NCBI RefSeq assembly: GCF_030013595.1
Contig: NZ_CP122769.1
Reading direction: 5' to 3' (one strand)
Source: Escherichia coli
GTDB lineage: Bacteria; Pseudomonadota; Gammaproteobacteria; Enterobacterales; Enterobacteriaceae
Length of the DNA stretch: 64,000 nt
The position numbers were made by a program, and so were the translations under genes. Position 1 is the stretch's first letter, and the number at the start of each line of letters is the position of its first letter. Of the stretch, positions 26,155 to 46,106 are shown piece by piece. Below the pieces are notes generated by a model. It saw nothing but the letters and a program-made list of their open reading frames with translations. It made no database searches and was not told where the DNA came from.

Positions 26155-27708
26155 TTAGTTTTCAACTAACTGAACGACGACCAGCCTGCCGCCTTCCTCC
26201 TTTGACAGAACAAACTGAGCGTTATTCGTCAGTTCAATTTTTTCCCCAATGGCAATCTGTCGTTTATCCGGTAATGACATAAGCCCATTTATGCCTTCAT
26301 TTACTAACCACCACTGATCGTTATGGAAAACAAAATACCCAACTCGTTTCCTTTGTGCATCGGTTGTGCGCTCATTTGGCGCAATGAGGCGATTCACATG
26401 CCACGCATAGATTGACTGCCCGCTCCACACCATCAACCGGTGGTCGTCAGGACGATAACTGCCTTCCTTTCGGGATGAATATAAATTTAGAACCGGTAAT
26501 TTACCCTTGTATGGCGTACCGCAGTAGGGACAAACCGGCTTTGTCTTACCTGAGAAAACGTACCATTTCTGTTCACACGCCTTGTTCTGGCAGGGCTGTA
26601 TCAGATCGACTGTTTTAACCAGGGCACTTTCCCACTCATCGGCGGTCGGGCGTTTATTGGCATCGTGTAAGCCATCAATAAAGGCGCGTTCAAACAAAGG
26701 CGTCAAATAAGGGCCCATGATGGTGTAAGGAATTTTCTCCGGGTCAGCCCAGGGCAGTGAAAAGGAGGATATCTGACTGACTTTGACTGCATTGCTTTTG
26801 TCTGTCGGATGTTCAATGAAGAGTGCCTTCTCACCCATAGATAAGGTCTCATCACGTACTTCATCCGACATGTCATGTATTTTTCCGCCACGTAGCGGAT
26901 GACGGAAGAACAGATACATGTAGATAAGCACCGACAGCGCATGACGGTCAGTAGAAATGCTTGGCAATACGCGGTTCGGATCCTCTTTGGAAAGATGGCT
27001 GGTTTTCACCACTTCCGGAGCGATAAAATCCGGGGTGCCCACGACGTCGGGAGGATACTTTCCAGGGACAACCAGGCCGTCTACGTCAATGATGCAGGCA
27101 TGTCCCATTTCTGGATCGATAAGCACGTTTTTATAGCTTAGATCGCTGTGACAGAGACCTGCCGCATGCATCCTTCTGACGGCTCTTGTTAGCAGCAGAC
27201 AGACCTTGAGATAGGTAAGCGTATTGCCTCGTTCACGTGGGTCGAGAAATTTATTCTGGTTGCTGGCGCTGGCAAACCATTTGCCTTCCTTTTCACGGCC
27301 TTTTATGCCAAGAAAATCATCGTTTTTAGAGCCGTATTTAAAGAAAAAGTAGCTTTTGTAGGTTGGAACCACGATGCCGATTTTATCCCCATGCTCAACA
27401 ACGTGGGTCGGCCAGCAAAACAGGTCCTTCCAGTATTCACCTCCGGACTGGCCAAAAATGTTTTGCCTGTAGCGTCCGGTGATCATATCAATCCGATCCC
27501 GGGCCTGCTCGTTCTGCGGTTTATGATAAAAAGCGACGACGTATGATTTATCAGGCGAGAAGTAAACATCCTTCATCGAGCCCGAACCAATTACCTCGTC
27601 AACATACTGGACTGTTTCGCCGTCCTTTGTTTTGCACGTAACAATATTTGCCATATTGATCACCGAAGAAGCGTATCCCTTACCACAACACCGCAATAGT
27701 GCGGTCAT
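26155..27708 (-). CDS. Hanks-type serine/threonine protein kinase with C-terminal zinc-ribbon
   Basis: Gly-rich loop VIGSGSMKDVYF, catalytic loop HSDLSYKNVLI, IDVDG (DFG-equivalent), GTPDFIAPEV (APE motif); CQNKACEQ...CPYCG zinc ribbon. Alternative start at 27654 (MANIVTCK). Confidence 0.8.
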   Translation of the reverse strand: MTALLRCCGKGYASSVINMANIVTCKTKDGETVQYVDEVIGSGSMKDVYFSPDKSYVVAFYHKPQNEQARDRIDMITGRYRQNIFGQSGGEYWKDLFCWPTHVVEHGDKIGIVVPTYKSYFFFKYGSKNDDFLGIKGREKEGKWFASASNQNKFLDPRERGNTLTYLKVCLLLTRAVRRMHAAGLCHSDLSYKNVLIDPEMGHACIIDVDGLVVPGKYPPDVVGTPDFIAPEVVKTSHLSKEDPNRVLPSISTDRHALSVLIYMYLFFRHPLRGGKIHDMSDEVRDETLSMGEKALFIEHPTDKSNAVKVSQISSFSLPWADPEKIPYTIMGPYLTPLFERAFIDGLHDANKRPTADEWESALVKTVDLIQPCQNKACEQKWYVFSGKTKPVCPYCGTPYKGKLPVLNLYSSRKEGSYRPDDHRLMVWSGQSIYAWHVNRLIAPNERTTDAQRKRVGYFVFHNDQWWLVNEGINGLMSLPDKRQIAIGEKIELTNNAQFVLSKEEGGRLVVVQLVEN

Positions 27709-29320
27709 CGTGGTTCCCTGTGGAGAAAAAGTTAAGCCAGTCGCCTAACCTCTCAGGCGCAATACTGGCGTCTGTAAGGACAGGGATGAGCTCATCAAGG
27801 AGACGGGTCCATTTTTCGTCACTGCGAAGCCCGTTATCTGTCTCAAACAGAGGGTCTGATACGCCATCTGTCATGAGGATCAAGTGAGATACATCATTCC
27901 ATTTACCCACGCTGATGCGGCCGCTAAACGAGGGGTCTGCGATAATGCTCTGGTCAAGAAAGCGGGTTTGTCCTGCGTATTCTCCGCTATCGGGATTTCC
28001 CAGTATCCTGACTTTACCGGAAGGGCTGTATGCACCTATCGCACCATCACCAAGCCAGAATGCAGCCGCAAACAGCTCGTTATCAGTTCGTAGCGCTACA
28101 GTTGCCAGTAGGGTTGTTGAATAGGATTTCACAGGTTGTTCTGCACAAATGGCTTCGTTCTGGATACTGTTGACCGCGAGCGTAGCTGCCTGTTTAAAAT
28201 GATGAAGCATGGCGTTTATGGTTGCCTGCTGATCGCTCCCTTCCCACGCCGTGATGTGCTGCTTTAGATGGACGCCTTTCAAACCACTGAGCTGATTGAA
28301 AAGGTAATCGCCAGCCGTTTGGACTGCAATCCGGGAGCCTTCCCGGGAATTTACCGCACTACCGGCCCCGTCTGCGACCAGCATGACAGACCATCCTGTT
28401 TCCTGGCAGTGGTTGATATAGAAGTCGTCATCTCTGAAGCTCCCGGCATGCTCATGAGATCGTCCCCGGCGACTGGCGGCAGCAATACGTATGTCACCCC
28501 TGACCAGGCCAGCAGCGTCCAGATGGGACTTAGGGTAGGAAGCGTCTGCTGGTGGCTCTACCACCTTCCACAGGCTTCTCGGATCGGGATTGACTATAAA
28601 AAGCTGTTTTGTTTCGCATTCGTCGTGCGAAGCGCATGACCAGAGTACTGAAAGCTCTATATCGCCGCTTTCGGTGGGTGTACCTGTCAGCAACTTATGC
28701 TCTTTGTCAAAGGTCAGGCCAATGTTCCTGGGAAAGACAACGTCCCTGACAGTAGCCTGCTGGCCCTCATCCAGAACTATAGCAACCGGCGAAGAGAAAC
28801 GTTCGCCTGCGCGGGCGTTGGGAATAACTATTTTAGCTCTCGGGGGAACGGCAGGTGGCACAGCTAATCCGGCCCGCTGCTGGCCTGTCGGTATCTGCCC
28901 GGGTTTTAATACCAGGGAAGACAGGTTTTCGTCTTCCCTCTGTGCTGGTTTATCAAATTCGTAATAAGGCATCAGCTTCCAGAACGGAGGATGAGGTTCA
29001 TTTTCTGGCAGGGGTTGCAGTAATGGTGTATCGGTAGCGTCAATGCCCGGGTTATCAGCATCACTTACGACCGTTTGTTGCTGATCGGAAAGGCTGGATG
29101 CTGACGAGGGGGCGATCTCTGCGTCGTTATAACCTTCGCTAACCCGCGCAGATAAACCCTGTGCAAGGCTCTCAATCCGCTCTTTAAGCCGCATAATCTC
29201 TTCAGTAAGGGAAGGGTCGTGCGATAGAAGAAAAAGCCGCTCACCTTCTACAGGGTGGCCCAGCTCAGACAGCACTAAGCGGATAATCTTCTCTTCAAGT
29301 AAAACATTTTGCGACATCAA
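27680..29320 (-). CDS. PP2C-family serine/threonine phosphatase with N-terminal extension
   Basis: PP2C-like motifs MLVADGAGSAVNS and LILMTDGVSDPL; stop overlaps kinase start region and start overlaps upstream vWA gene stop. Confidence 0.75.
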   Translation of the reverse strand: MMSQNVLLEEKIIRLVLSELGHPVEGERLFLLSHDPSLTEEIMRLKERIESLAQGLSARVSEGYNDAEIAPSSASSLSDQQQTVVSDADNPGIDATDTPLLQPLPENEPHPPFWKLMPYYEFDKPAQREDENLSSLVLKPGQIPTGQQRAGLAVPPAVPPRAKIVIPNARAGERFSSPVAIVLDEGQQATVRDVVFPRNIGLTFDKEHKLLTGTPTESGDIELSVLWSCASHDECETKQLFIVNPDPRSLWKVVEPPADASYPKSHLDAAGLVRGDIRIAAASRRGRSHEHAGSFRDDDFYINHCQETGWSVMLVADGAGSAVNSREGSRIAVQTAGDYLFNQLSGLKGVHLKQHITAWEGSDQQATINAMLHHFKQAATLAVNSIQNEAICAEQPVKSYSTTLLATVALRTDNELFAAAFWLGDGAIGAYSPSGKVRILGNPDSGEYAGQTRFLDQSIIADPSFSGRISVGKWNDVSHLILMTDGVSDPLFETDNGLRSDEKWTRLLDELIPVLTDASIAPERLGDWLNFFSTGNHDDRTIAVLW

Positions 29321-30357
29321 CCTCTCCCTCTGTTTACGTCGAAGTTAGTGTTTCCGCCATCATTGCTGAATGACAGACCTGTTTCACACCACGGGCAGAT
29401 CACGTCATCCGGGCCGTCAATGCACAGCAATTTTCCGCATGAGCACAGGGCAAACGCACTGGCATTACCGCAGTGAGGGCAACCCGGTACGCCATGCAGT
29501 TCGCTGGTGTTTACCTGCAAACCGGTAGCGGTGGCATCTGACCATGCAAAATAGTCCTCATCGATGGGATAGCATCCGGCAATATTAAAGCTGTTCAGGT
29601 TCAGGCTGAAATCGAGCCCGGAAATCCTTGCTGGTGGCCGTTCATACTTCATCAGATACGGACGACGGGTCTTGCTGCAACGGCCGGTAAGCGTAACGCA
29701 GTTTTCGTCGTACGCTTTTACTGGCTCGTCCTTGGCCAGCCGGACTATGTATTCAGTCTGGCTGAGCTCAGGTTGTTTGTCGTCTCCGACGCTGCGGCTG
29801 TGCGCCGTAACCGAGGCTGTGATCCATTTGATGAAGCGGGTAAAGTCCCCTTCCTGAGACTCGGTGAACAGCATGACATTCTCTGTCAGTTGCCGCAGGG
29901 TATTCAGGTCCGCTGACGGCCCCAGGCCAACGGCAATGAGATTCACTTTACTCGCGTAGTGATCCTTCCAGCGCTTCACTTCTGCGGTTGTGTCGTCAGT
30001 CGGACGTCCGTCGGTAAGGAGATACACGACGGGTTTCCAGTCGCCTTTAGCCTCATGAGTGGTTTTTCTGACCTGGGTATCAATTTGTACGGTCAGCTCA
30101 CGCAATGCGGCCCCAAGGCTCGTACCGCCGCCAACGGGAAGGCGGGGAGGGTAGAACGAGGCAATTTCGTGAAGAGGTACAATCGTACGGGCTACACCGG
30201 CAAATGCGATTACCGAAACCCAGGCTGTTTCAAGTGCGTGTGGATCCTTTCTTAAATCTCCGATGATCATTTGCAGACCATCAGTCATTTTTTTCAGGTT
30301 TTCACCAATCATGGACTCTGAACAGTCCAGGACAAAAAACACGGGAAGGCGTCTCAT
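29317..30357 (-). CDS. TerY-like vWA protein with C-terminal zinc ribbon (third TerY paralogue)
   Basis: Start set at MRRLPVFFVLDCSESM (RBS GAGGAAA); MIDAS motifs DCSES and YLLTDGRPTDD; C-terminal CPHCG...CSCG...CPWC. Confidence 0.75.
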   Translation of the reverse strand: MRRLPVFFVLDCSESMIGENLKKMTDGLQMIIGDLRKDPHALETAWVSVIAFAGVARTIVPLHEIASFYPPRLPVGGGTSLGAALRELTVQIDTQVRKTTHEAKGDWKPVVYLLTDGRPTDDTTAEVKRWKDHYASKVNLIAVGLGPSADLNTLRQLTENVMLFTESQEGDFTRFIKWITASVTAHSRSVGDDKQPELSQTEYIVRLAKDEPVKAYDENCVTLTGRCSKTRRPYLMKYERPPARISGLDFSLNLNSFNIAGCYPIDEDYFAWSDATATGLQVNTSELHGVPGCPHCGNASAFALCSCGKLLCIDGPDDVICPWCETGLSFSNDGGNTNFDVNRGRG

Positions 30358-30442: not shown

Positions 30443-31084
30443 TCAGAGCACCAGCTGGATTTCTGGTGGAGGAGGGGGAAGGGTATCAGTTCCGTTATTG
30501 ATCCCCGCGCTTGTGCTGCCGGAAGACACGCTGGCCGATACCCATTTAAAGAAACCTGCAAACGCGGTTGAATCTAGCGTCTCCAGAGACACAACCTTAT
30601 CGGTGAGCTGTTTTAAGTGCTCATGGCCTGCTTTAGGACCAACGGCGCAGGCAATGATGGATCCGAATCCCCGGCCGCGAATCGCTTTTACCGCTTCACC
30701 GTACGCCAGGGCATCAGAAGGGGTTCCATCAGTCATCAGGAATACCAGAGGACGCCAGTCTCCTTTTGTATCACCATCTGAGCGACGTACATCCCGTTCA
30801 ACACACTGCATCAGACATTCAAGGGCAGCACCGGTGAACGTCCCGCCTGCGCTTGGCACAACGATGTCAGAAAACTGGAAGTCTTCCAGCGGCGTGAGAG
30901 GAATGAACTCACGCGCCTCATTGTCATAGGTGATAATGGAGATATGAACGCTTTCGAGGGCGTAGGGATCCTGGCGAAGAGCGCTAAGCATCGCCTGAAT
31001 TCCAACGTTAACGGAATGGATGGACTCACCGCGCATCGAGCCGGATGTGTCGATAACAAGGTAAACAGGCAGGCGGCGCATCAC
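30443..31084 (-). CDS. TerY-like vWA protein (second TerY paralogue)
   Basis: MMRRLPVYLVIDTSGSM and FLMTDGTPSD MIDAS motifs; 213 aa; start overlaps terX stop. Confidence 0.8.
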   Translation of the reverse strand: MMRRLPVYLVIDTSGSMRGESIHSVNVGIQAMLSALRQDPYALESVHISIITYDNEAREFIPLTPLEDFQFSDIVVPSAGGTFTGAALECLMQCVERDVRRSDGDTKGDWRPLVFLMTDGTPSDALAYGEAVKAIRGRGFGSIIACAVGPKAGHEHLKQLTDKVVSLETLDSTAFAGFFKWVSASVSSGSTSAGINNGTDTLPPPPPEIQLVL

Positions 31085-31722
31085 ATGTAATTCCTCAGGT
31101 GCGAGACAAACGAATCTGATTCTGAAGGCTCACCAATTGCCCTGAGTTTCCAGCCTGTAGCCTCGCGTATCAGCTCGGCAAAAACCATGGAGCGCTGGCT
31201 GGCGAAGGCGGGTCCGCCAGAAAGATCGAATCGTGCCATTTCAATATTACGGGCATCTACTGCCCGGATGAAGGCATTCTGAACTTTACCAAAGTGCTGC
31301 TGGAGCTTTTCACCATTGTAGATCTGAACGATGAACACAATTTTCTCGTACTGAGCGTCAAGGGAATTCAGGCGCACAATAATTTGCTCATCGTCACCAT
31401 CACCGGCTCCGGTTCGGTTATCGCCCGTCAGCCAGATATTTCCTGACTTATGGCGAAGGCTGTTGAAAAAGATGATATCGCCATTCACAAGCGTTGGTTT
31501 ACCATTTTCCACATTGCCGAGATCGGTCACCTTTCCGGCTGAATTACACAGGAAAGCGATCACATCAAGGTCGTATTCTTCTTCTTTTTTACCAAAGATC
31601 CCGCCGAGGAAACCTTTCTTTTCCTCATTAATATCCCAACCCAGGCCGATAGTAACGGACGAGAGATCGTATTCATTTTTTTTCAGGCTTACGCCCTGGC
31701 CTTTGCTCAGACTGACAGACAT
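31081..31722 (-). CDS. terX: TerD-family protein TerX
   Basis: TerD-domain signature GDNRTGAGDGDDE and N-terminal [13 protein letters not shown] typical of TerD/TerX proteins. Confidence 0.85.
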   Translation of the reverse strand: MSVSLSKGQGVSLKKNEYDLSSVTIGLGWDINEEKKGFLGGIFGKKEEEYDLDVIAFLCNSAGKVTDLGNVENGKPTLVNGDIIFFNSLRHKSGNIWLTGDNRTGAGDGDDEQIIVRLNSLDAQYEKIVFIVQIYNGEKLQQHFGKVQNAFIRAVDARNIEMARFDLSGGPAFASQRSMVFAELIREATGWKLRAIGEPSESDSFVSHLRNYM

Positions 31723-31744: not shown

Positions 31745-32383
31745 TTATAAGACCACGTTTACTTCTGGCGGCGGCGGTGGCAGGTCTTCAAGACCGATCA
31801 CTTCTTTTTTGCTGGACTCCACTTTCTGACTGCCTACCGAAATGCTCGCACTGACCCATTTAAAGAAAGCTTTAATCGTCGAACTGTCAGCTGTATCGAG
31901 CTGAACCACGATTTCAGTGATTTCTTTGAGGACGCTGGTATCGGCATCATGCCCGGCTGCACATGCCACAACAACGCCGGTTCTGGCCGCTTTAAAGTCA
32001 TTCAGGCCTTTACGCCAGTCATCATTCGGACTTCCATCCGTCATCAGGAATACAAGGGGACGCCAGTCACCTTTAGTGTCAGCCGTCGTTTTCTGTACTT
32101 CTTTGGCAATGGAGCTGGCCGTCAGGGTAAGCGCTGCGCCAAGAGAGGTGGTGCCGCTGGCTGTTAGTGCTGGCATCTGGAAACTCAGGAGGTCTGTCAG
32201 GGGGACTGCCTGTCGGGCTGAAGAATCAAAGGTGATCACTGACACGTAAGCCGTTTCGAGTGCATACGGATCCTGTTTCAGCGTGGTAAGCAGCGTCTGA
32301 ACGCCATTCTTAACCGCTTCGATAGGCTCTCCGTGCATAGAGCCGGACGTGTCGAGTAGCAGATATACGGGTAAGCGTCTCAA
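31745..32383 (-). CDS. terY: TerY vWA protein (first TerY paralogue), TTG start
   Basis: LRRLPVYLLLDTSGSM and FLMTDGSPND; no in-frame ATG at the conserved N-terminus, but TTG at 32383 is preceded by AAGGA at proper spacing. Listed ORF extends to 32464. Confidence 0.7.
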   Translation of the reverse strand: MRRLPVYLLLDTSGSMHGEPIEAVKNGVQTLLTTLKQDPYALETAYVSVITFDSSARQAVPLTDLLSFQMPALTASGTTSLGAALTLTASSIAKEVQKTTADTKGDWRPLVFLMTDGSPNDDWRKGLNDFKAARTGVVVACAAGHDADTSVLKEITEIVVQLDTADSSTIKAFFKWVSASISVGSQKVESSKKEVIGLEDLPPPPPEVNVVL

Positions 32384-32846
32384 ATGTAATTCCTTCTTAA
32401 GAGATCGGAAGAGGAGAGTAGTTTCAGGAAGAGGCCAGAGTTTGTAGATTTGATAAAACGGCACGACATCTGTCGGGTGGAGATTAAATACTCAGAAGCG
32501 GCATTAAAGAAATAAGTTAACCACCATTGAATTACCGACATGTGAATGGCCTCTTATCAGAGAAAAAAATTCAGACCGTACTGGAATATAAAATTTCTGA
32601 AAAAAACTCCGGCAAAAATAAACTTTCTTATGTATGAAAATCATCATACATCACAGATCTGCATGAATGGAGTGTAAATCGCCCAAAGATTGATGTGTAG
32701 CACAAGAGGATGTCAAGACACCAGGTTTTGTAGGCAGAAAGGCGCTGCTGACATTGCGGGAGGAGAATAGATCAAAACTCCGTCACGCAGATACAGAGGT
32801 GAAATATGACAAAACCGGGGTTTTCACCCCGGTCTGAGATTTAGCG

Positions 32847-33314
32847 TCAGGACTTTTTAGCGCTGTATTCTTTTATCAGTTCATCAACGGAGTGCAGAGC
32901 CAGCTTCTCTACCGCTTCACTTCGGGTCGAGCCACTCAGCGCAGCCAGACGGTCAATTTTTCTTAAAATCCGCATGCGTAGCGATAATGACACGGCTGTT
33001 TTTTTATCCTTATCGAGTACGACCTTCCCTGTGGACTCACCGGTTTTCAGTTCAGCATTCTGTGCGAGCGCTTCATTCATCCGGCGAAGGGTCTTTTTAT
33101 CCAGCTGGCCCGGATTAACGAGATGGTAGGAATGACCTGCCTTGCTGTATTTGATCTCCGCAGAATATGACTCGCGTAGCTCTTTGAGTGCCCGGGTTAA
33201 TGTCGGCTCTGAGCATTCCAGACTGGTTATAATGTCGGCAGCGGAAACGGGCTTGCCGGTGCCCAGTAAGTTGGCAAGCTTAAAAATCCGGGCCTGTCTG
33301 GTATTTAATTGCAT
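32847..33314 (-). CDS. terW: winged-helix regulator, TerW-like
   Basis: 155-aa product with HTH-like segment ADIITSLECSEPTLTRALKEL; position immediately upstream of terY/terX as in described ter loci; followed by hairpin CCGGGGTTTTCACCCCGG. Confidence 0.55.
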   Translation of the reverse strand: MQLNTRQARIFKLANLLGTGKPVSAADIITSLECSEPTLTRALKELRESYSAEIKYSKAGHSYHLVNPGQLDKKTLRRMNEALAQNAELKTGESTGKVVLDKDKKTAVSLSLRMRILRKIDRLAALSGSTRSEAVEKLALHSVDELIKEYSAKKS

Positions 33315-33331
33315 CGTAAGATTTAGCCTGC

Positions 33332-34540
33332 TTAAAGGGTTAGTGGTTCAATAGGCTGAAAAATGAAGGTACTGCTCATCTTTCGAATAACCGGGTGATC
33401 GCCTAACGCTTCAACCGGATCAATGTGTTCTAAGCCTGCAAAATTTACTGACGACATCTGGCTGCGACTGCATTTGCAGGACAGGATATACTCATCCTCC
33501 AGATAGCCGGTCCGCTTACTGACCCGTTGCGTAAAGCCTGACACAATCACGTTGTCGAACGGTAGCGTATGTAAAACGATACCGACCAGGCGGAACAAGC
33601 AGCCATGGACGTGGCGGGCATAGTTTTCGCGTACGGCTTTTTGCGTCATGGCTTTTTCCGTCAGCTCCGTGCCCCGGGCATTAACGCCGTAAATCTTATC
33701 AGGGAAATCTTCAATCTCAGCTAAATCAACATCCAGCAGGACTGCTGATAGCTCCGGCTTTACTTCAAATGCAACAAGCGTTTCACGCGGCCATTCAGTT
33801 TCTGCCAGCACACCCGCCAGGTATGATTCGAAAAACGCGGCGTCTGTCCGGAACTGCTGCCGGGCATCTGCCTGAGCCGTGGCGAGCCGTTTTTCATGTT
33901 CTTCAGCCTCAAACTTCCAGTTTGCATACTGTTCGGCCCAGGCCGTCCGTTGTTGCTGGTACCGGTGCTGTCGAAGGGTATTCTCACGCTCCACATCAAT
34001 CAGCTCCTGCTGCCACCGGCGAAGATTTTCGGCGTGGCGCTCAGCTTTAGCTGATTCCGATTCAAACCATTTACCCAGAAAACTAATGCCTTCGCTCTCG
34101 GCAGGCTTTTCCGGCAATGCAAGATAGTCTGGCTTTTCTGGACGCACCGGTGCCGGAACCTGAAAAGGCGACGTTCTGTTATGCAGGTATACTGCTTCCA
34201 GCTCTGCCCAGCTGATGCCTGTTTTAGGATCCGGCGTCAGCTCGTGAATATTACGGATTGCGGTCACCGCTGACATGAGATCAGCGGCTTCCTCCTCAAG
34301 CGCCTGTCTGAGCCCCGGGTCGGTAGCCGTCCGGTTCCCACCTCCGGAACGCGCGGCCCGATCAAGCCGGGTACGGTAACTCAGCCCGGTACCGGGCAAG
34401 CCCAGATTGGCATAGGTCCCCCGGCTTCCAAAAGAAACGGAAGCACCTCTCGGCCCGACACTCAGGCTCGGTGCACCGTTACTCAGGTTGAGGCGAACAC
34501 CAGGAATAATGTTGATCGACTTTCTGAATCTGAACCCCAT
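33332..34540 (-). CDS. DUF4236-like N-terminal domain protein, function unknown
   Basis: N-terminal Gly-rich motif MGFRFRKSINIIPGVRLNLSNGAPSLSVGPRGASVSFG; charged helical middle region. Confidence 0.5.
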   Translation of the reverse strand: MGFRFRKSINIIPGVRLNLSNGAPSLSVGPRGASVSFGSRGTYANLGLPGTGLSYRTRLDRAARSGGGNRTATDPGLRQALEEEAADLMSAVTAIRNIHELTPDPKTGISWAELEAVYLHNRTSPFQVPAPVRPEKPDYLALPEKPAESEGISFLGKWFESESAKAERHAENLRRWQQELIDVERENTLRQHRYQQQRTAWAEQYANWKFEAEEHEKRLATAQADARQQFRTDAAFFESYLAGVLAETEWPRETLVAFEVKPELSAVLLDVDLAEIEDFPDKIYGVNARGTELTEKAMTQKAVRENYARHVHGCLFRLVGIVLHTLPFDNVIVSGFTQRVSKRTGYLEDEYILSCKCSRSQMSSVNFAGLEHIDPVEALGDHPVIRKMSSTFIFQPIEPLTL

Positions 34541-34550
34541 TATGATTTCC

Positions 34551-35510
34551 TTAATGATGCTGGGTCACGGTAAGTAATCTGATTCCATCAGCGCTTTGCT
34601 CGTTCTGTAACCCATAAAAACGAGCTCTGTCCAGAATGCCAGCCGCCCAGCGGCGATGTGTGGCGGGTTCACACATTGCTCCCTGCGACTTAAACACGGC
34701 CTGGGTAGAGTTCAGGATCCGCAGAGCGTCAGAATGCTCACCCTGAGTGACCATCAGCGCGTTTTGAATGACCTCTATCTGACCCGGGTGAATGGCCGTT
34801 TTCCCAACAAGCCCATGTGCCATATCAAGAGCCAGCTCTCTGGCCATTACGGCATGATCGTCAATATGCTCACATACGGGCGCGGTCAGGGCAAAATCAC
34901 GCGGGCCGAAGACCGAAACGAGCATTTTGATGACGTAGCCCATCGGGCTGTCATACAGCGTCAGGTCCCGGGGACGGCGAAGCGACACAACGTTCATAAG
35001 ATCGTTGCCGCCGATTCGAAGCGCAATAATGCGGTCGTGGCAGGGATGTTCCACCAGACGGGTGGCCAGCTCCCGCATCTGAACCACGTCAAAGACGTCT
35101 TCTGTTTCCAGCGTTGGCATCATGCACAGGTGAGTCCCGCCCATGATATCCCACCATTCAGCTAACGAACTGAGGGTAAATTTCGGCAACACAAACCCGT
35201 CGACAGCGGAAAGATCATAATGCGCTTTTAACCATCTGCCCATTTCGGCATGCCGGGGGCGAATGAACACCAGAGGCCAGTCATTTTTACCCAGGCTATG
35301 CATGCTGTTACTGAGCTCGTGCAGCAGGTGCTCCAGATTTTTGAGGGCGACGGGGATGTCTGCTTCACTGACAGCATCCTCCAGGCAAATCACCAGAGAG
35401 CGCAAACCCGGGATTTTCCCGTGCAGGACGGCATCAGCAATATCTTCCCGTGTTGCAGGCATGTATAGCGTGGCTCCCAGATTCCAGGGAGAAAGACGAT
35501 TTTTCATCAA
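34551..35510 (-). CDS. HpcH/HpaI aldolase / citrate-lyase beta-subunit-like TIM-barrel enzyme
   Basis: 319-aa product with CitE/HpcH-like features (LVICLEDA, ...RIGGNDL...); start overlaps upstream stop. Family assignment by recollection, not search. Confidence 0.6.
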   Translation of the reverse strand: MMKNRLSPWNLGATLYMPATREDIADAVLHGKIPGLRSLVICLEDAVSEADIPVALKNLEHLLHELSNSMHSLGKNDWPLVFIRPRHAEMGRWLKAHYDLSAVDGFVLPKFTLSSLAEWWDIMGGTHLCMMPTLETEDVFDVVQMRELATRLVEHPCHDRIIALRIGGNDLMNVVSLRRPRDLTLYDSPMGYVIKMLVSVFGPRDFALTAPVCEHIDDHAVMARELALDMAHGLVGKTAIHPGQIEVIQNALMVTQGEHSDALRILNSTQAVFKSQGAMCEPATHRRWAAGILDRARFYGLQNEQSADGIRLLTVTQHH

Positions 35511-36586
35511 AGTACCTTCTTGATAATGGTTACAGCCCGATACTGGCCGAGGGTTCCCCCCATTTCTGTAACAACTATTCCCTTTTCACGAGCAAGCCCT
35601 ACAAGCAAGGCAACGTCCGGGTCGTCAATAGAACGCACAAATACATGGTCCGGTACCCGACGTAATACAGCCCGGGTTGCTTCAGCAATACCGGGTTTTA
35701 TACGATTGACGCTGTCCACTTTAAATTCATCGGCCAGGAACGCGATAACGTCGCGACTTGTCTGCCATAAGATCCGGGCTGACTCCGTATTCCAGCTCAG
35801 GGGAGCGAGGGATGACGGGGTTAACTTCTTACGGAAATGAGCGACGGTATCGACAAGCATCCGGCTGCATTCGAATTCACTGAGATGCTCGCAAACCATG
35901 CACCCGTGTAATCCTTCAGAGGACCACACTGACCGGGAGATCAGGCCTGACACCGGCGCACCCATGATGCCAAAAGGAATGAGCCAGTCATCATCACTGG
36001 CTGCAAGCCAGGAGCAGCCACAGGGATCGGCCAGGACAACCAGTCGCGGCTGCTCAGGATAGCCCGGGCGATCTTTCAGTGCGCGTACAAGCTCTCCGGT
36101 AATTGCGCCTTTACCTGTCCATCCGTCAACAAAGACAATACCGCTGGTACCATGCCGCTCTTCAATGACGTCGAGGGCTGCACCGTCAATTCCACGATCC
36201 CGGATAATGCTGATACCGTAATGCCATGAGGTTTTCCCCATGTCACGCAGGGCCTGGTGCAGCATAACGCCGAGCGGCACGCCAGCCCTGACAAGACTGG
36301 CCAGTACAATGGGCTCATCACCAAAGCGTTTGGCCAGAGCAATAGCGAGCTGTGTGACTTCTTTTGCAAGTCTCTCTGCGCCCCGATCCAGCGCCCGGTG
36401 AAACAAATCAAGATGCCATTGTGTTGGCGCTGGCTCCTGACTGAGCATGTCCGAATAATGTTTCTTCCCTGACTGAATCAGCTCTTCTTTTTGCTCAACC
36501 GGCGTCATCTCAATGACAACCGGCTTTAGCAGAAATTCCACGTCACCGGGCTGGTATGAGCCGGTAAATGTGTCATGTGGCTGCAT
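35507..36586 (-). CDS. conserved ter-associated protein with degenerate phosphoribosyltransferase-like motif
   Basis: Start set at ATG 36586 (MQPHDTFTG), one nt after the HAD gene stop; motif GIVFVDGWTGKGAITGEL resembles a PRTase PRPP loop. Listed ORF extends to 36652. Confidence 0.5.
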   Translation of the reverse strand: MQPHDTFTGSYQPGDVEFLLKPVVIEMTPVEQKEELIQSGKKHYSDMLSQEPAPTQWHLDLFHRALDRGAERLAKEVTQLAIALAKRFGDEPIVLASLVRAGVPLGVMLHQALRDMGKTSWHYGISIIRDRGIDGAALDVIEERHGTSGIVFVDGWTGKGAITGELVRALKDRPGYPEQPRLVVLADPCGCSWLAASDDDWLIPFGIMGAPVSGLISRSVWSSEGLHGCMVCEHLSEFECSRMLVDTVAHFRKKLTPSSLAPLSWNTESARILWQTSRDVIAFLADEFKVDSVNRIKPGIAEATRAVLRRVPDHVFVRSIDDPDVALLVGLAREKGIVVTEMGGTLGQYRAVTIIKKVL

Positions 36587-36587
36587 T

Positions 36588-37361
36588 TTAATTTTCTCCA
36601 AAAATTCGCTGTGAAATGGCATCTGCAAACTGACTCTGACGCGGGATGCCAAACCAGCTGCACAGTTTCATAAAACGATGATCGCTCAGGCTGTCGCCCA
36701 GGCCAATTACGGGGAAGACTCCGCGTTCAGCCCGAAGTTTTTCAAGCAGCCATCTGACTGCCAGCCCTTTCTCAACCGGGGTGGGAAGCCAGGCCACGTT
36801 ATTACTGTTGCGGTGGATGTAGAAGCCCTCGGTCGGAAACACCGTTTCTATCTCATCTGCAATGGCATTGAGCTCGTCAAGGCGGGTGCTGTCGCGGTGC
36901 TTCATCACCATATAAACCGCCGTTTCACAGTATTCGAAGTTCAGCCTTGCCCAGGCATTGATCCCTTTTGCGTCCATCATTTCAGTGATCAGACGCTGCA
37001 TCGATGTCAGCTTTTCCTGGTAGGGAGCCAGCTGGCCAAGCATATGGGCCTTCCACTCCTCGTCGGGTTTGCCTTCAGGCGTGAGAATGACGGCCCCGTG
37101 CGTGGTGATTGCCCAGGAGTGGAAAGGGATCCGGACGCGGCTGATTTCTTCAGTTCCCCGGGCGGTAACAGGTATGAGTTCAGCCTGCTCCAGGAGCCAG
37201 TCCACCAACATGGACTGTTCTTCCGTCATAAAGCTTCGTGGATTCAGGGTGCGATCAACGGCACCGGTACGGAATGGCTCCAGGGCCAGCTCGTCCACCA
37301 TTTTACGACGGGTCTGAAAGAGCGTGTCGTCAAGGTCGCTCAGAACAACGGGTTTATTCAT
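36588..37361 (-). CDS. HAD-superfamily hydrolase
   Basis: Start set at MNKPVVLSDLDDTLFQ (HAD motif I DxDxT) with RBS GGAGA; listed ORF has a 112-codon upstream extension overlapping the PRTase gene. Confidence 0.65.
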   Translation of the reverse strand: MNKPVVLSDLDDTLFQTRRKMVDELALEPFRTGAVDRTLNPRSFMTEEQSMLVDWLLEQAELIPVTARGTEEISRVRIPFHSWAITTHGAVILTPEGKPDEEWKAHMLGQLAPYQEKLTSMQRLITEMMDAKGINAWARLNFEYCETAVYMVMKHRDSTRLDELNAIADEIETVFPTEGFYIHRNSNNVAWLPTPVEKGLAVRWLLEKLRAERGVFPVIGLGDSLSDHRFMKLCSWFGIPRQSQFADAISQRIFGEN

Positions 37362-38502
37362 AGGTAACAATCTCCACGACGGGCGCAACCTCAGCCAGGG
37401 CTTTAAGAAGCTGCGTGTCAATACTTTCTGCGGGTGTCTCAGTACACACAAGAATACGGTCAAACTGCTGGTGGGCGACGTTATAGACAAAATTGGGGAT
37501 GCCCAGCCCGTAGTTATCCGTAAAGGAAATGGCGGACTCAATGGCATAACCAACGGCGATAGGGGAGCGGGTGGTCGAACCATAAAGTGCCTGTGCTCCG
37601 GCAGCTTCGAGCCGTTCAGCAAGCAGGAACGGCTCCCAGACGAATTCCCCGGTCCCGAGAACCAGAATACGTTCCCCCTTGCGGACGGAGACCTCATGGC
37701 CGAGATCGGCCGCAGGTGCGAGCATCCCCAGTCGACCCCAGGACTGTTTTCCCAGGATGTCCCATTCTCCGCGTGAAGTTACGTTGACTTTCGGCATGTC
37801 CGGGACAGGTGCATCAGGTAATGGGGTCCATCCCCACTGACCGCTTACAAGCGAAACCGAAGTGACGGGCAAGGATGTGCGCTCCGACAGGGCGTTGCTA
37901 CTCCAGTCGGTAAGCGTAACGGCGATAACCTGTTCAATATGTTGAAGCTTGCCGGTATTACGCAGGGCAGAAAGCAGGTTAATAAAGGTATTACCGGTGG
38001 TTGCCTCGTCATCAATCAAAACCAGCGTTCGTGCGTTGGTAACACGACGTCTTTTCTCTTCATCATCTGGCAGATAGATCAGATGATCGGTGGCGTGGCT
38101 GTGTTCTTCCTTGAACTCGCAAAGTAACGTGCCATCAACCGGGTGACGGGTAGAGGTCAGATAGACAGATTCACGATGCTGGTGGCGCACTTCATCAAAC
38201 ACACCGGCCCCTAGCCCAACGGCGGTTTCAGCCATACCGATAAAAAGTACGGGCCCTGTCAGCGTTGCGGGGAACTGGCTGGCAAGCTGTCTGTAGGCCT
38301 GCCGCATGACTGAGGGTGGCACGGGAATGTGCCTGCCGAGTACTTTGCTGACAAACAGAAAGGCGCGTTTCGGGTTACGTCTTTCAGCGATATCAAACAG
38401 GTCATCGAGCGAAACATCACCCTGGTCGCGGGTTACCTGTATCGTACCGCATGAGAGGGTACGGCGATAAATCATATCTTCGAGGGTATCAGACATAAAC
38501 AC
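37354..38502 (-). CDS. phosphoribosyltransferase (PRTase) family protein
   Basis: PRPP-binding motif RTLVLIDDEATTGNTF. Confidence 0.7.
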   Translation of the reverse strand: MFMSDTLEDMIYRRTLSCGTIQVTRDQGDVSLDDLFDIAERRNPKRAFLFVSKVLGRHIPVPPSVMRQAYRQLASQFPATLTGPVLFIGMAETAVGLGAGVFDEVRHQHRESVYLTSTRHPVDGTLLCEFKEEHSHATDHLIYLPDDEEKRRRVTNARTLVLIDDEATTGNTFINLLSALRNTGKLQHIEQVIAVTLTDWSSNALSERTSLPVTSVSLVSGQWGWTPLPDAPVPDMPKVNVTSRGEWDILGKQSWGRLGMLAPAADLGHEVSVRKGERILVLGTGEFVWEPFLLAERLEAAGAQALYGSTTRSPIAVGYAIESAISFTDNYGLGIPNFVYNVAHQQFDRILVCTETPAESIDTQLLKALAEVAPVVEIVTYE

Positions 38503-38505
38503 GCC

Positions 38506-39564
38506 TTAATTCAGATGGTTAGAGAGTGATTCCGGGTAAACGATGACATCTGTGATGGATCTCACTGCAACCGGAGAAAAGGTATTTCTGGCGCTCTGGA
38601 TCACCGCATCTTCAGACATCAGACCGAGCTTAAAGGCAGCAAACAACCCGGGAAGGTTCACCCCGCTGTGAAGGGTATAACCCACCCCGCCTGACGGACG
38701 CATGTTGGTTTCAAGCAGCACCGGGTTGCCATTCACATCGTTTCGCGTCTGAACATTCACCAGCCCGTCGGCCTTCATAACCCGGGCGCAGTCACAAGCC
38801 AGTTCCCAGGCGCTTCCTTCGTTTACCAGATACTGGATAGCCCCTTCCTTACGGCGTCCCACGGCTGCGAGTATTTCGCCCTTATCCGCGAGGATATCGA
38901 CGGAAAATTCCGGGCCTGGCAGGTACGGCATCAAAACAAGGGGTTTAAACGACTCAGAAGCCGATGCTGCTGCAATATACTGTTGCGGACTGACCAGACG
39001 ATGTTCGGGATGATTAAAGACGGCCATGGGCGAAGCACTGTCATCAAAGCGCCAGAATCCCATGCCATAGATACCCGTCACCGGCTTCACGCATACCGGG
39101 CTGTCCGAGAACGGCGGGGCCGCGAGGTGCGTCTTTAATTCTGCCAGCGTATTCACCCGCCAGGACGGTACGACCGGGAGCCCGTTTTGCTCCATAAACT
39201 GAGCAAAAGTAACTTTTTCGTCAGCCAGAGTTAACCAGTCGACGCCTGTTGCACCGGTAGTAAGGGTGGCTCCGGTCGATTCAATGGCTGAACGGTGTTC
39301 TTCAAACCACTGGCTGTTACGGCCAGTATGAATATGGTGGATGCCGTAGGTCTGAATGGTTTCCTGAATAAACTGAAGACGTTTTTGAGGATCTTCAGGT
39401 TCAGTCAAAGAATAATCGGCAACGGAAAGAATTTCATGTCTTTCGTTACGGTGGGAGGCAAATACGGTAATAGCAAAATTATTTTTTTGTGCAAATGATT
39501 TTACCCCCTGAATAATATCTCGCTGGGAGGACAAACCTTCCATAAACCAAATTTTCTTGTTCAT
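38506..39564 (-). CDS. ATP-grasp family enzyme
   Basis: 352-aa product with ATP-grasp-like organisation; first gene of the minus-strand operon, divergent from terZ. Family assignment by recollection of ter-linked clusters. Confidence 0.6.
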   Translation of the reverse strand: MNKKIWFMEGLSSQRDIIQGVKSFAQKNNFAITVFASHRNERHEILSVADYSLTEPEDPQKRLQFIQETIQTYGIHHIHTGRNSQWFEEHRSAIESTGATLTTGATGVDWLTLADEKVTFAQFMEQNGLPVVPSWRVNTLAELKTHLAAPPFSDSPVCVKPVTGIYGMGFWRFDDSASPMAVFNHPEHRLVSPQQYIAAASASESFKPLVLMPYLPGPEFSVDILADKGEILAAVGRRKEGAIQYLVNEGSAWELACDCARVMKADGLVNVQTRNDVNGNPVLLETNMRPSGGVGYTLHSGVNLPGLFAAFKLGLMSEDAVIQSARNTFSPVAVRSITDVIVYPESLSNHLN

Positions 39565-41647: not shown

Positions 41648-42103
41648 ATGAGCTTTTTCGACAAGGTAAAAGGTGCCATTAACTCTGGCCGGGACGAACT
41701 GACCCGCCAGGTTGGTCGTTTCAAAAACAAAAAATTTATGCACGGCACCGTTGCTGTATGTGCCCGTATTGCCGTATCGAGTGACGGCGTGAGTTCGGAA
41801 GAAAAGCAGAAAATGATGGGCTTTCTTCGCTCTTCAGAAGAGCTGAAGGTCTTCGATACCAATGAGGTGATCGAGTTCTTCAATAAACTGGTTTCAAGCT
41901 TCGATTTCGATGTTGAAATCGGCAAGGGCGAAACCATGAAATACATCCTGGCGCTGAAAGATCAGCCTGAGGCCGCTCAGCTGGCCTTACGTGTTGGTAT
42001 TGCCGTTGCGAAAAGTGACGGTAACTTCGATCAGGACGAGAAACTGGCCTCCCGCGAGATCGCTATCGCGTTGGGCTTCGACCCGGCTGAATTTGGCCTC
42101 TGA
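41648..42103 (+). CDS. terB: tellurite resistance protein TerB
   Basis: Start set at MSFFDKVKGA with RBS AGGAAACAGG; TerB-like sequence; listed ORF has a 20-codon upstream extension. Confidence 0.85.
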   Translation: MSFFDKVKGAINSGRDELTRQVGRFKNKKFMHGTVAVCARIAVSSDGVSSEEKQKMMGFLRSSEELKVFDTNEVIEFFNKLVSSFDFDVEIGKGETMKYILALKDQPEAAQLALRVGIAVAKSDGNFDQDEKLASREIAIALGFDPAEFGL

Positions 42104-43860: not shown

Positions 43861-44436
43861 ATGGCAGTTTCTCTCGTAAAAGGCGGCAACGTATCTCTGA
43901 CCAAAGAAGCACCAACCATGAATATCGCTATGGTTGGCCTCGGCTGGGATGCCCGTGTAACTGACGGTCAGGCTTTTGACCTGGACGCTTCCGTGTTCGC
44001 AGTAGGCGAAGACGGTAAAGTGCTGTCAGATGCGCATTTCATTTTCTTCAATAACAAAACCAGCCCTGATGGCGCGGTAGAGCACCAGGGCGACAACCGT
44101 ACCGGTGAAGGCGACGGTGACGATGAGCAGGTCAAAATCGATCTGACCAAAGTCTCAGCAGATATCAAAAAACTGGTGTTTGCCGTTACCATCTATGATG
44201 CAGAAGCGCGTAAACAAAACTTCGGCATGGTGAGCAACAGCTTCATGCGCGTTTACAACAACGACAACGGCACGGAAATTGCCCGTTTCGATCTGTCTGA
44301 AGATGCCTCAACCGAAACCGCTATGGTCTTCGGTGAACTGTATCGTCATGGCGCTGAGTGGAAGTTTAAAGCTGTCGGTCAGGGCTTTGCCGGTGGCCTG
44401 GCGGCTCTTGCCTCCCAGCACGGCGTTAACATCTAA
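43861..44436 (+). CDS. terE: tellurite resistance protein TerE
   Basis: Start set at [13 protein letters not shown] with RBS CAGGAG; [13 protein letters not shown] signature; listed ORF has a 68-codon upstream extension overlapping terD. Confidence 0.9.
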
Positions 44437-44453
44437 AACAACGCTGAATCATA

Positions 44454-44478
44454 CCCCGGCAATGCCGGGGTTTTTTTT
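44454..44478 (+). terminator. Rho-independent terminator CCCCGGCAATGCCGGGG + T8
   Basis: Perfect 7-bp GC stem, 3-nt loop and TTTTTTTT, 18 bp after terE stop. Confidence 0.65.
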
Positions 44479-44864
44479 GGTTGCGATCCGCTTTCAGGAG
44501 GGAGTAGTAGAAAGGGGACTGGAAATTTCAGAAAGCAGGTCATGTTAATTCAGACCTGAGCCTTTTAAAGGCAGGAAACGGATTTATCTCTGGTTGCTGG
44601 TTAAAGCCGGTATTCCGTGCCTTTTATCAACAGAATGCCCCTCTGATATATGTTACTTTTGCGGTTTATGAAGGAACGGGATCTGGAACATAAGATACCC
44701 GGTCAATCAAAATTCCAGTTCAACAGGTATAGAAACTTCAGCGTGATGAAATATGGTGTCACACCATATATACGCCTCACCAGAAATCCAGCGTCCTGAA
44801 CTAAGCCTGGGGAACATATATAAGCGCTGCGCTTTAAAAATAATCAAAAATCAGGAGAGTTAAT

Positions 44865-46106
44865 GTGAATCTACAATCCGGACAAAACATACCGCTTCAG
44901 CAATCTGCGATCAGGCTGAATCTTCAGTACCCTGCCAAATCCGGCTTTAAAGGCGAACCCGATACCTGCCTCTTCCTGCTTAATGCTCAGGGAAAGGTAA
45001 CCGGCGATTCTGACTTTATCTTTTATAATAATCTGTCTTCTCCTGAAGGGGCAGTAAAGCTCGTTACCGGTTCTCAGCAGTCCAGCATTGAGATAGCACT
45101 GGATCGTGTTCCGGCGAACGTCAGTAAGATTGCGATCACCGTTGTCATTGATGGTGAAGATACTATCAGTGGGCTCAGTTTATTGAGCATTCAGGCTCCT
45201 GGTATCGCTGATTTTCAGGCTGAGACTCAGGGCCGCAGTGAGAAAGCAATCATCCTGGGTGAAGTATATCGGCACAATGGCGCCTGGAAGCTTCGTGCGC
45301 TCGGGCAGGGTTTCAACGGTGGTCTTGAGCCTCTGGCCATTAGCTTTGGCGTTGATGTCGCACAGCCAGCTCCGCAGCCAGCAAAGCCCGCTCGTATCAG
45401 TCTGGAAAAGAAACTTGAAACCAGATCTCCGCGCCTCGTAAGCCTCGCTAAAAAAGCCTCGGTCAGTCTCACTAAAAATAAACTGGACACCCTTGAGGCA
45501 GCGGTTGCATTTGTACTTGACGCATCCGGCTCAATGAGTGGCCAGTTCAGTAAGGGCAACGTTCAGTCTGTGCTGGACCGCATCGCCGTTCTTGCCGCCC
45601 AGTTCGACGACGACGGTGAAATGGATGTCTGGGGATTTGGAGAGAAGCACAAGAAGTATCCAAACGTCACACTGGACAACCTGGACACATATATTCAGTC
45701 CATTCGCGGGTCTGGAAAGCGTTCAGCCTGGGAGAACCTGCCGGGACTTGGTGGGACAAACAATGAGCCCCCTGTGATGGAAGAAATTGTCGACTACTTT
45801 AAGGACTCGAAAATCCCGGTATATGTTGTATTTATTACCGATGGCGGGATCAGCAAGACCCGGGCGATTAAAGATGCAATCCGGCGTTCTGCCAACTACC
45901 CCATCTTCTGGAAGTTTGTCGGCCTGGGTGGTTCAAGCTACGGTATCCTCAAAAATCTGGATGACTTTACTGACCGCCGGGTTGATAACACCCACTTCTT
46001 TGCCATGGATGATTTCGGTTCGATCAGCGATGAAAAGTTATATGATAATTTACTGGAAGAATTCAGACCGTGGATCGATGAAACAAAAAGGTTAGGCATC
46101 CTGTAA
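44865..46106 (+). CDS. terF: TerF: TerD-like N-terminal domain fused to vWA-like C-terminal domain, GTG start
   Basis: GTG start with RBS CAGGAGAG; N-terminal TerD-like region ([14 protein letters not shown]); C-terminal MIDAS-like LDASGSM and FITDGGIS. Confidence 0.8.

Follow-up and report, generated by a model that had tools for sequence, protein, structure and literature searches.

Non-ATG start codons and long upstream reading frames in an IncHI2-type ter locus of Escherichia coli

Described ter clusters and the locus in the window

The tellurite-resistance cluster terY3-Y2-X-Y1-W / terZABCDEF was named in E. coli KL53 and in the IncHI2 plasmid R478 (PMC11003894). The term "start codon" does not occur in that paper, where start codons go without discussion, and a search of the published literature on ter genes found nothing relevant on them. 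Two annotated relatives serve for comparison. The first is the IncHI2 ter region in the RefSeq record NZ_CP015833.1, called by PGAP, whose products include TerY1 (WP_049589870.1), the HAD-like protein (WP_001040056.1), TerY-C (WP_001253653.1), TerB (WP_000007448.1) and TerF (WP_001053338.1). The second is the ter locus of the Klebsiella pneumoniae IncFIB/HI1B plasmid pENVA (NZ_HG918041.1).

The window is a stretch of 64,000 nucleotides from the E. coli contig NZ_CP122769.1, and its ter locus is like the KL53/R478 cluster in gene set, gene order and gene names. The IncHI2-type cluster is present as terZABCDEF together with terW, terY1, terX, terY2 and terY3 (TerY-C), arranged as terZABCDEF, an operon running from an ATP-grasp gene to terW, and a terY1-terX-terY2-terY3-phosphatase-kinase operon. 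An ATP-grasp/PRTase/HAD/StiP/HpcH/DUF4236 operon lies between the ter operons, and the annotation table and the Pfam domains agree with the assignment of the cluster. Many plasmids of E. coli, Salmonella and Klebsiella match the window at 100% identity over 11 kb, with IncHI2A-typed plasmids among these identical matches. Some plasmids seemed to carry a 297-nt insertion, but this was an artefact produced when separate BLAST pieces were joined.

Initiation at GTG or TTG with a Shine–Dalgarno (SD) sequence is ordinary in Enterobacteria, and two non-ATG starts in 18 genes is about the usual rate for E. coli. The terY1 and terF starts resemble such ordinary cases, with an SD at 5–7 nt, a conserved N terminus and ATG in relatives. 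The locus is best read as an ordinary and already correctly annotated IncHI2-type ter gene structure, in which terY1 is translated from TTG and terF from GTG (probability about 0.92). Orthologue comparison shows the position of every start, and ribosomes would actually use the TTG of terY1 and the GTG of terF.

NZ_CP015833.1 has the same start for every gene discussed here, the TTG of terY1 and the GTG of terF among them; its differences from the window lie away from the start sites, with the PP2C gene split in two and terA flagged as frameshifted. The pENVA locus is orthologous to and collinear with the window at ~70% nucleotide identity, and CDS lengths are equal for 10 of 11 minus-strand genes. 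It uses ATG for terY1 and terF, where the window has TTG and GTG, and GTG for terY3, where the window has ATG. In-frame stops stand 0–4 codons upstream of its terY1, terF, HAD and terE starts. The gap between terE and terF is 87 nt in pENVA versus 428 nt in the window, and pENVA has no upstream ORF before terY1, whereas the window has one of 53 aa.

The terY1 start

31745–32383, minus strand: terY1, a vWA protein of 212 aa; TTG start at 32381–32383; PGAP WP_049589870.1 has identical coordinates
32391–32395, minus strand: terY1 SD, AAGGA, 7 nt upstream of TTG
32384–32464, minus strand: in-frame extension of the terY1 ORF, 27 codons from GTG 32464, non-coding
32380–32541, minus strand: upstream ORF of 53 aa, probably spurious; its TGA stop overlaps the terY1 TTG (TTGA)
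32812–32835, minus strand: intrinsic terminator after terW; 10-bp stem with 6 GC pairs and a T tail

The original prediction that terY1 lacks an ATG at its conserved N terminus and starts instead at a TTG with a good ribosome-binding site was borne out. The TTG at 32381–32383 on the minus strand is followed by RRLPVYLLLDTSGSM, and the next methionine is residue 16, at the DxSxS motif. This MIDAS motif (DTSGS / DCSES) occupies residues 11–15 in TerY1 and in the short form of TerY-C, and the VWA domain of each begins at residue 6 (Pfam PF00092, PF13519). When terY1 is aligned across 55 loci of different species, residue 1 falls on a start codon in every case: ATG in 46, TTG in 5 and GTG in 4. 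The closest relatives, at amino-acid identities of at least 90%, are the five with TTG; in every one of these an in-frame stop lies 1–28 codons upstream with no alternative in-frame start.

DNA conservation stops short at the terY1 start codon. The SD and its spacing are kept in six sequences of the TTG clade, within the sole conserved upstream block of ~25 nt, and outside that block the upstream DNA is unalignable. An in-frame GTG 27 codons upstream of the TTG is open in the window and counts against the TTG call. No SD precedes this GTG at 32464, and in the pENVA orthologue a stop lies 4 codons before the start.

TTG ranks weakest among the three common start codons, and two paralogous vWA genes share the operon. 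Both points would fit a mutation that cost terY1 its start codon and left a silent or nearly silent, decaying paralogue, redundant with terY2 and terY3. This is highly improbable. The coding sequence remains intact, no upstream bases other than the SD and its spacing are conserved, and purifying selection within the TTG clade is strong. In five TTG-bearing lineages dN/dS is 0.006–0.05 with synonymous sites saturated (dS ~1–2.6), which indicates that the protein is being made.

The 53-aa upstream ORF suggests a different dependence, in which TTG initiation would need translational coupling to this ORF, which would then be a functional leader. The ORF comes with an ATG and an AAGAGG SD of its own, it terminates in the TTGA overlap with the terY1 start, and many pipelines annotate it as a gene. 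Coupling is nonetheless very unlikely and was rejected for the poor conservation of the ORF across loci. Its frame is open for only 8 codons, without a start, at locus L006 and for 19 codons at L008; the sequences at L005 and L007 are unrelated to it, its protein is not conserved at L017, and the Klebsiella locus has no such ORF. The overlapping TGA is found at all loci because codon 2 of terY1 is AGA.

The terminator after terW places terY1 at the head of its own transcription unit; a sigma-70 promoter scan upstream of terY1 gave no match. Searched against Rfam at gathering thresholds, the whole window matched no RNA family, so neither the 463-nt terW–terY1 gap nor the 428-nt terE–terF gap holds a known leader or riboswitch. 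Two further candidates were rejected. In folding of the terY1 initiation region, the SD can base-pair with a CU-rich tract, but at an energy no better than that of shuffled sequences (z = 0.7), which does not support an SD-sequestering structure. The idea that the sequence upstream of terY1 descends from the 3' end of a terX-like gene had only a 15-nt match (AGGAATTACAT[T/G]TGA) to the terX/terY2 junction, which 3 of 300 shuffles equalled and which is too short for a conclusion.

The terF start

44865–46106, plus strand: terF, TerD and vWA domains, 413 aa; GTG start, after a terminator at 44453–44471 and a 428-nt gap

The GTG start proposed for terF likewise stood. The SD CAGGAGAG is followed by 5 nt and then the GTG at 44865; an in-frame stop lies 7 codons upstream, with no other in-frame start. 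The TerD domain of TerF begins at residue 1 (Pfam), and the 413-aa form is UniProt Q9X736. ATG stands at this position in three orthologues of at least 68% identity, from Klebsiella pENVA, Silvania and Klebsiella sp. (L002, L007, L008).

terY1 and terF share a layout: both have a good SD at normal spacing, and both come first after an intrinsic terminator, beyond a non-coding gap that exceeds 400 nt. The remaining genes start from ATGs packed against the upstream gene, with overlaps of 1 or 8 nt and gaps of 1–22 nt inside operons, which is the usual layout for translational coupling.

Genes with long upstream reading frames

36588–37361, minus strand: HAD-like phosphatase gene, 257 aa, DLDDT motif; ATG, 8-nt overlap with the PRTase 3' end
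37362–37697, minus strand: HAD ORF extension, non-coding, 112 codons from ATG 37697, in an alternative frame of the PRTase gene
35507–36586, minus strand: StiP gene (PRTase-like plus PELOTA); ATG 1 nt past the HAD stop
41648–42103, plus strand: terB, 151 aa, ATG start
43861–44436, plus strand: terE, 191 aa, ATG start
29317–30357, minus strand: terY3 (TerY-C), 346 aa, ATG start

Several genes of the locus sit in reading frames that stay open upstream of the conserved N terminus. In addition to the HAD extension, there are extensions of 22 codons for StiP (TTG 36652, inside the HAD 3' end), 20 codons for terB (TTG 41588, within the terA 3' end), 68 codons for terE (ATG 43657, overlapping terD) and 68 non-coding codons for terY3 (to TTG 30561). 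These longer ORFs are probably chance open stretches, most of which read through the 3' end of the upstream gene in an alternative frame. Over the 18 genes the upstream open stretches span 1–139 codons (median ~12), and nothing in these stretches or in the non-ATG starts rises above chance expectation.

The longest ORFs could be taken as the real genes (TerY1 239, HAD 369, TerB 171, TerE 259 and TerY3 414 aa), with the extensions as lineage-specific additions. The extended frames are open in the window, and several extended forms have been deposited publicly, TerB-171 on at least 1000 contigs. This account is extremely unlikely and already largely refuted, since orthologues carry stops within the supposed extensions or directly upstream of them. 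The HAD orthologues of Klebsiella, Providencia and Superficieibacter have stops 1–4 codons before the start, and ATG stands at position 1 in all 11 of the 11 orthologues with identities of 69% or more. The StiP orthologue of Providencia has a stop 1 codon upstream, and that of terE in pENVA has one 4 codons upstream. For terB, Pectobacterium has no upstream in-frame start, distant homologues have stops 3–4 codons upstream, and the short start is found in 11 of 11 orthologues of at least 82% identity. Of 48 terY3 loci, 45 have ATG at position 1 and 3 have GTG. The orthologue comparison supports the short starts of terE, terF, StiP, HpcH and the kinase gene likewise.

The upstream starts of the extended ORFs also lack an SD, and the extensions lie in an alternative frame of the upstream gene, so that residue similarity there (e.g., around the terB TTG at –20) reflects coding constraint on terA. 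Pfam domains begin near most of the short starts: at residue 9 of StiP and residue 6 of TerY3 (VWA), each counted in the short form, with position 1 of the TerD domain profile falling on residue 1 of short TerE. The domain of short TerB begins at residue 34, and HAD has no Pfam match. The solved TerB structure (PDB 2JXU) begins at the short-form methionine, which is residue 21 of the long form.

The short forms are therefore retained, in keeping with the original prediction that the conserved N termini begin at internal ATGs: orthologue starts and stops place them there, and homologue alignment, the check proposed with it, finds zero conservation across any extension. The long extensions overlapping neighbours hold for HAD, StiP, terB, terE and terY3; if the "PRTase-like" gene meant the PRTase_2 gene, that part fails, with an extension of 2 codons only. 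The claim that these ATGs sit 1–8 nt from the upstream stop fits HAD, by its 8-nt overlap, and StiP, by its 1-nt gap, but not terB, terE or terY3, where the gaps to the upstream gene are 22, 67 and 85 nt.

Junctions between neighboring genes

32847–33314, minus strand: terW; ATG, conserved as ATG in 11 of 11 orthologues
33332–34540, minus strand: DUF4236 gene, ATG start
34551–35507, minus strand: HpcH/citrate-lyase-like gene; ATG, sharing 1 nt with the StiP stop
37354–38496, minus strand: PRTase_2/TRSP gene; ATG, with a GTG 2 codons upstream

A 1-nt overlap with the preceding gene is seen at HpcH, terY2, PP2C and terA. At three junctions a second candidate start codon lies beside the ATG (TTG-ATG in HpcH, GTG-ATG in terY2 and GTG-x-ATG in the PRTase gene). 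Comparison favors the ATG in each, and some initiation at the neighboring codon may occur. For HpcH, the TTG just before the ATG is probably not the start, as Klebsiella has CTG at the –1 codon; other orthologues were compared too. For PRTase_2, SD spacing favors the ATG (AAGG, 7 nt, ATG).

Weak start codons and stoichiometry

Weak start codons would be expected to lower the output of the TerY1 and TerF vWA proteins. It is possible, if rather doubtful, that the TTG of terY1 and the GTG of terF were selected in the IncHI2-type lineage for a low stoichiometry of these unit-heading vWA proteins relative to their TerD-family partners. TTG is kept in all terY1 sequences of the TTG clade, where only 7% of four-fold sites are invariant. 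Its retention there, though ATG or GTG would serve, is a mildly suggestive hint of selection for a weak codon. If these codons are selected, they would offer modest insight into the stoichiometry of the poorly understood Ter complex.

Public annotation of the starts

The start sites are real but already known, and the reference annotation is correct; the significance of the analysis lies mainly in annotation hygiene. The short forms of all named genes are called by RefSeq PGAP (NZ_CP015833, pENVA) and in the Prokka-style record OW968140, where terY1 is again called from TTG and terF from GTG. By exact-sequence look-up in public collections, which covered the short forms other than HpcH-318 and TerY2-212, each one occurs on at least 1000 contigs. 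The expectation that automated annotation would over-extend these genes thus fails for PGAP and the Prokka-style record and holds for a minority of records, mostly author-submitted, and for TerB-171, which is common.

The UniRef100 count is 4 for TerY1-239, and the counts for the other extended forms are 22 for HAD-369, 78 for TerE-203, 111 for PRTase-382 and 94 for HpcH-319. TerE-259 is deposited in pAPEC-O1-R and an extended TerY2-213 is deposited as well, while exact-sequence look-up of TerY-C-414 and StiP-381 gave zero matches in public collections. The 53-aa ORF upstream of terY1 is called by non-PGAP pipelines on at least 1000 contigs. The extended TerB-171, TerE-203/-259, HAD-369, PRTase-382, HpcH-319 and TerY1-239, along with the probably spurious 53-aa ORF, persist in databases and UniRef clusters, and the short forms are advised for cloning or modelling of these Ter-locus proteins. 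In OW968140, the kinase gene is called ~19 codons too long.

Gene map and operon layout

The gene map of the ter (tellurite resistance) cluster comes from the RefSeq annotation of an identical record, NZ_CP015833.1, transferred to window coordinates. The names terY3-Y2-X-Y1-W and terZABCDEF follow literature usage (PMC11003894).

29317-30357, minus strand, TerY-C (terY3)
30443-31081, minus strand, terY2
31081-31722, minus strand, terX
31745-32383, minus strand, terY1
32847-33314, minus strand, terW
33332-34540, minus strand, DUF4236 gene
34551-35507, minus strand, HpcH-like gene
35507-36586, minus strand, StiP gene
36588-37361, minus strand, HAD-like hypothetical gene
37354-38496, minus strand, PRTase gene
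38506-39564, minus strand, ATP-grasp gene
start 39887, plus strand, terZ
start 40468, plus strand, terA
start 41648, plus strand, terB
start 42126, plus strand, terC
start 43215, plus strand, terD
start 43861, plus strand, terE
44865-46106, plus strand, terF

Window DNA from 29000 to 40000 matches many plasmids of E. coli, Salmonella and Klebsiella, mostly IncHI2, at 100% identity, and hundreds of chromosomal copies in E. coli at 95-99%. Coordinates are shifted by 1 nt relative to NZ_CP015833.1 in the flanks. The PP2C phosphatase gene (27680-29317, minus strand) is a single intact 545-aa ORF in the window, whereas that record has two separate CDS (L001 6682-8318), and terA, flagged there as frameshifted, is an intact 385-aa ORF. 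The orthologous locus of the Klebsiella pneumoniae plasmid pENVA (NZ_HG918041.1), with about 70% DNA identity and almost the same CDS lengths, served for comparison. Antisense ORFs of 229 aa opposite HAD (36678-37367, plus strand) and 169 aa opposite HpcH (34656-35165, plus strand) presumably arise by chance in coding DNA of 55% GC.

Within the operons, genes lie close together, the usual arrangement for translational coupling. Overlaps of 1 nt join terX/terY2, terY3/PP2C, StiP/HpcH and terZ/terA, an 8-nt overlap joins PRTase/HAD, and most other intra-operon junctions are gaps of 1-22 nt. Two intrinsic terminators place terY1 and terF each at the head of a transcription unit:

32812-32835, minus strand, intrinsic terminator after terW
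44453-44471, plus strand, intrinsic terminator after terE

The unannotated gaps before these genes are 463 nt for terY1 (32384-32846, minus strand) and 428 nt for terF (44437-44864, plus strand; 87 nt in pENVA). No clear promoter was found in either, and Rfam gave no match anywhere in the window, both gaps included.

The TTG start of terY1

As originally noted, terY1 lacks an ATG at its N-terminus and has a TTG with a ribosome-binding site. It reads CTCTTAAGAAGGAATTACAT-TTG-AGA-CGC-TTA-CCC, with AAGGA 7 nt upstream and RRLPVYLLLDTSGSM directly after the TTG. Its longest ORF adds 27 codons, the sole listed extension that does not enter the upstream gene. One genome per species was scanned, and 55 loci carried a full-length relative of terY1 (57-96% amino-acid identity). 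The codon aligned to residue 1 was ATG in 46, TTG in five, GTG in four and a non-start codon in none. The window gene is most closely related to the TTG loci (Citrobacter, Enterobacter asburiae, Silvania, Klebsiella sp. and a Rheinheimera MAG); in each of these five a stop lies 1-28 codons upstream, and the frame offers no alternative start. Across this TTG clade the shared upstream DNA is only a block of about 25 nt with the SD and spacer. pENVA has ATG at the aligned start and an in-frame stop 4 codons upstream; its terW-terY1 intergenic DNA cannot be aligned with that of the window, and identity begins sharply at the start codon.

A pseudogene that had lost its start was also considered. 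Within the TTG clade, dN/dS is 0.006-0.05 at dS of about 1-2.6; this strong purifying selection rules out such a pseudogene and indicates that terY1 is expressed. All five full-length TTG-clade sequences keep the TTG, although ATG or GTG would also serve and only 7% of four-fold degenerate sites are unchanged across them. This hints weakly (p roughly 0.07-0.1) that the poor codon may be favoured.

Another ORF ends at the start of terY1:

32380-32541, minus strand, 53-aa ORF with its own SD (AAGAGG), its TGA overlapping the terY1 TTG (TTGA)

Pipelines other than PGAP annotate it as a hypothetical protein, on at least 1000 public contigs. Neither the TTG-clade relatives nor Klebsiella conserve it; it is therefore probably spurious, and coupling to it was rejected as the mechanism of terY1 initiation. 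A CU-rich tract, CUCUCCUCUUCC (32396-32425, minus strand), lies 10-30 nt upstream of the SD, with which it could pair, and four of the six TTG-clade leaders carry a comparable tract. In folding energy the initiation region does not surpass shuffled sequence (z = 0.7). The sequence AGGAATTACATTTGA around the start (32384-32398, minus strand) matches AGGAATTACATGTGA at the terX/terY2 junction (31082-31096, minus strand) at 14 of 15 nt, a score reached by 3 of 300 shuffles. An ancient duplication of a terX-terY unit may have left this match, but it is too short to conclude from.

The GTG start of terF

The GTG start noted for terF was borne out. The gene reads CAGGAGAGTTAAT-GTG-AAT-CTA; a stop closes its frame 7 codons upstream and leaves no other start there, and exact-sequence look-up identifies the GTG-started protein as UniProt Q9X736. 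The aligned codon is ATG in pENVA, Silvania and Klebsiella sp., and the in-frame stop in pENVA is 0 codons upstream. A minimal ATG-TGA start-stop overlapping the GTG, AATGTGAAT (44863-44868, plus strand), is probably due to chance.

Starts of the other genes

The longest ORFs of several other genes run into the upstream gene, as had been noted; the extensions measure 112 codons for HAD, 22 for StiP, 20 for terB, and 68 each for terE and terY3. The PRTase-like gene does not fit if PRTase_2 was meant, its extension being 2 codons only. The claim that the true ATGs sit 1-8 nt from the upstream stop holds for HAD (8-nt overlap) and StiP (1-nt gap), not for terB (22 nt), terE (67 nt) or terY3 (85 nt).

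The aligned-start procedure of the terY1 scan was applied to these genes, and the homologue comparison found no conservation across the extensions, the result named beforehand as refuting, which supports the short starts. HAD begins with ATG in 11/11 orthologues sharing 69% identity or more; a stop precedes it by 1-4 codons in four genera, and by 2 codons in pENVA. The terB start is ATG in 11/11 close orthologues; in Pectobacterium polonicum no in-frame start precedes it, and in distant homologues a stop lies 3-4 codons before it. Klebsiella shares the TTG at terB codon -20 solely because this TTG falls within the Phe-Gly codons at the conserved C-terminus of TerA. Stops also lie 4-6 codons upstream of terE in three orthologues (4 in pENVA) and 1 codon upstream of StiP in Providencia. 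Position 1 of terY3 is ATG in 45 and GTG in three of 48 loci.

Protein domains begin close to the short starts: VWA at residue 6 of TerY1 and TerY-C, StiP at residue 9, and TerD at residue 1 of TerE and TerF (all Pfam). For the solved TerB structure (PDB 2JXU), the alignment begins at residue 21 of the 171-aa protein, the short-form Met. Taken together, the homologue alignments leave the start-site interpretation well supported, and the original observation was essentially correct.

One further gene shows the same pattern:

26155-27708, minus strand, kinase gene downstream of PP2C, longest ORF 517 aa from an ATG at 27708 inside PP2C

Its conserved start, MANIVTCK, is at 27654 (499 aa), with orthologue stops 0-7 codons upstream. 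Non-ATG starts recur among TerY paralogues of other lineages, with GTG for terY3 in pENVA (L002 8347-8349) and Superficieibacter and for terY2 in at least seven of 57 loci.

Annotation in databases

All start calls match existing reference annotation: the finding holds, but it is ordinary and was known before. A rate of two non-ATG starts in 18 genes is normal. PGAP and the Prokka-style record OW968140 give the short forms of all named genes, TTG and GTG included; the OW968140 kinase call is over-extended. In a collection of about 15 billion proteins, exact-sequence searches placed each short form tested, a set that left out HpcH-318 and TerY2-212 (numbers are lengths in amino acids), on at least 1000 contigs. 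TerY-C-414 and StiP-381 had no exact match in that collection. The other extended forms are minority entries, mostly author-submitted: TerY1-239 (QMV81295.1), HAD-369 (AKT72442.1; UniRef100 n=22), TerE-259 (pAPEC-O1-R ABF67756.1), TerE-203 (n=78), PRTase-382 (n=111), HpcH-319 (n=94) and TerY2-213. Their persistence in databases calls for caution, which is the value of the observation. The exception is TerB-171, on at least 1000 contigs. Because PGAP and Prokka-style calls are short and the extended forms a minority apart from this one, the expectation that automated annotation would over-extend these genes was only partly right: it applies to older and author pipelines and to terB, not to current reference annotation.
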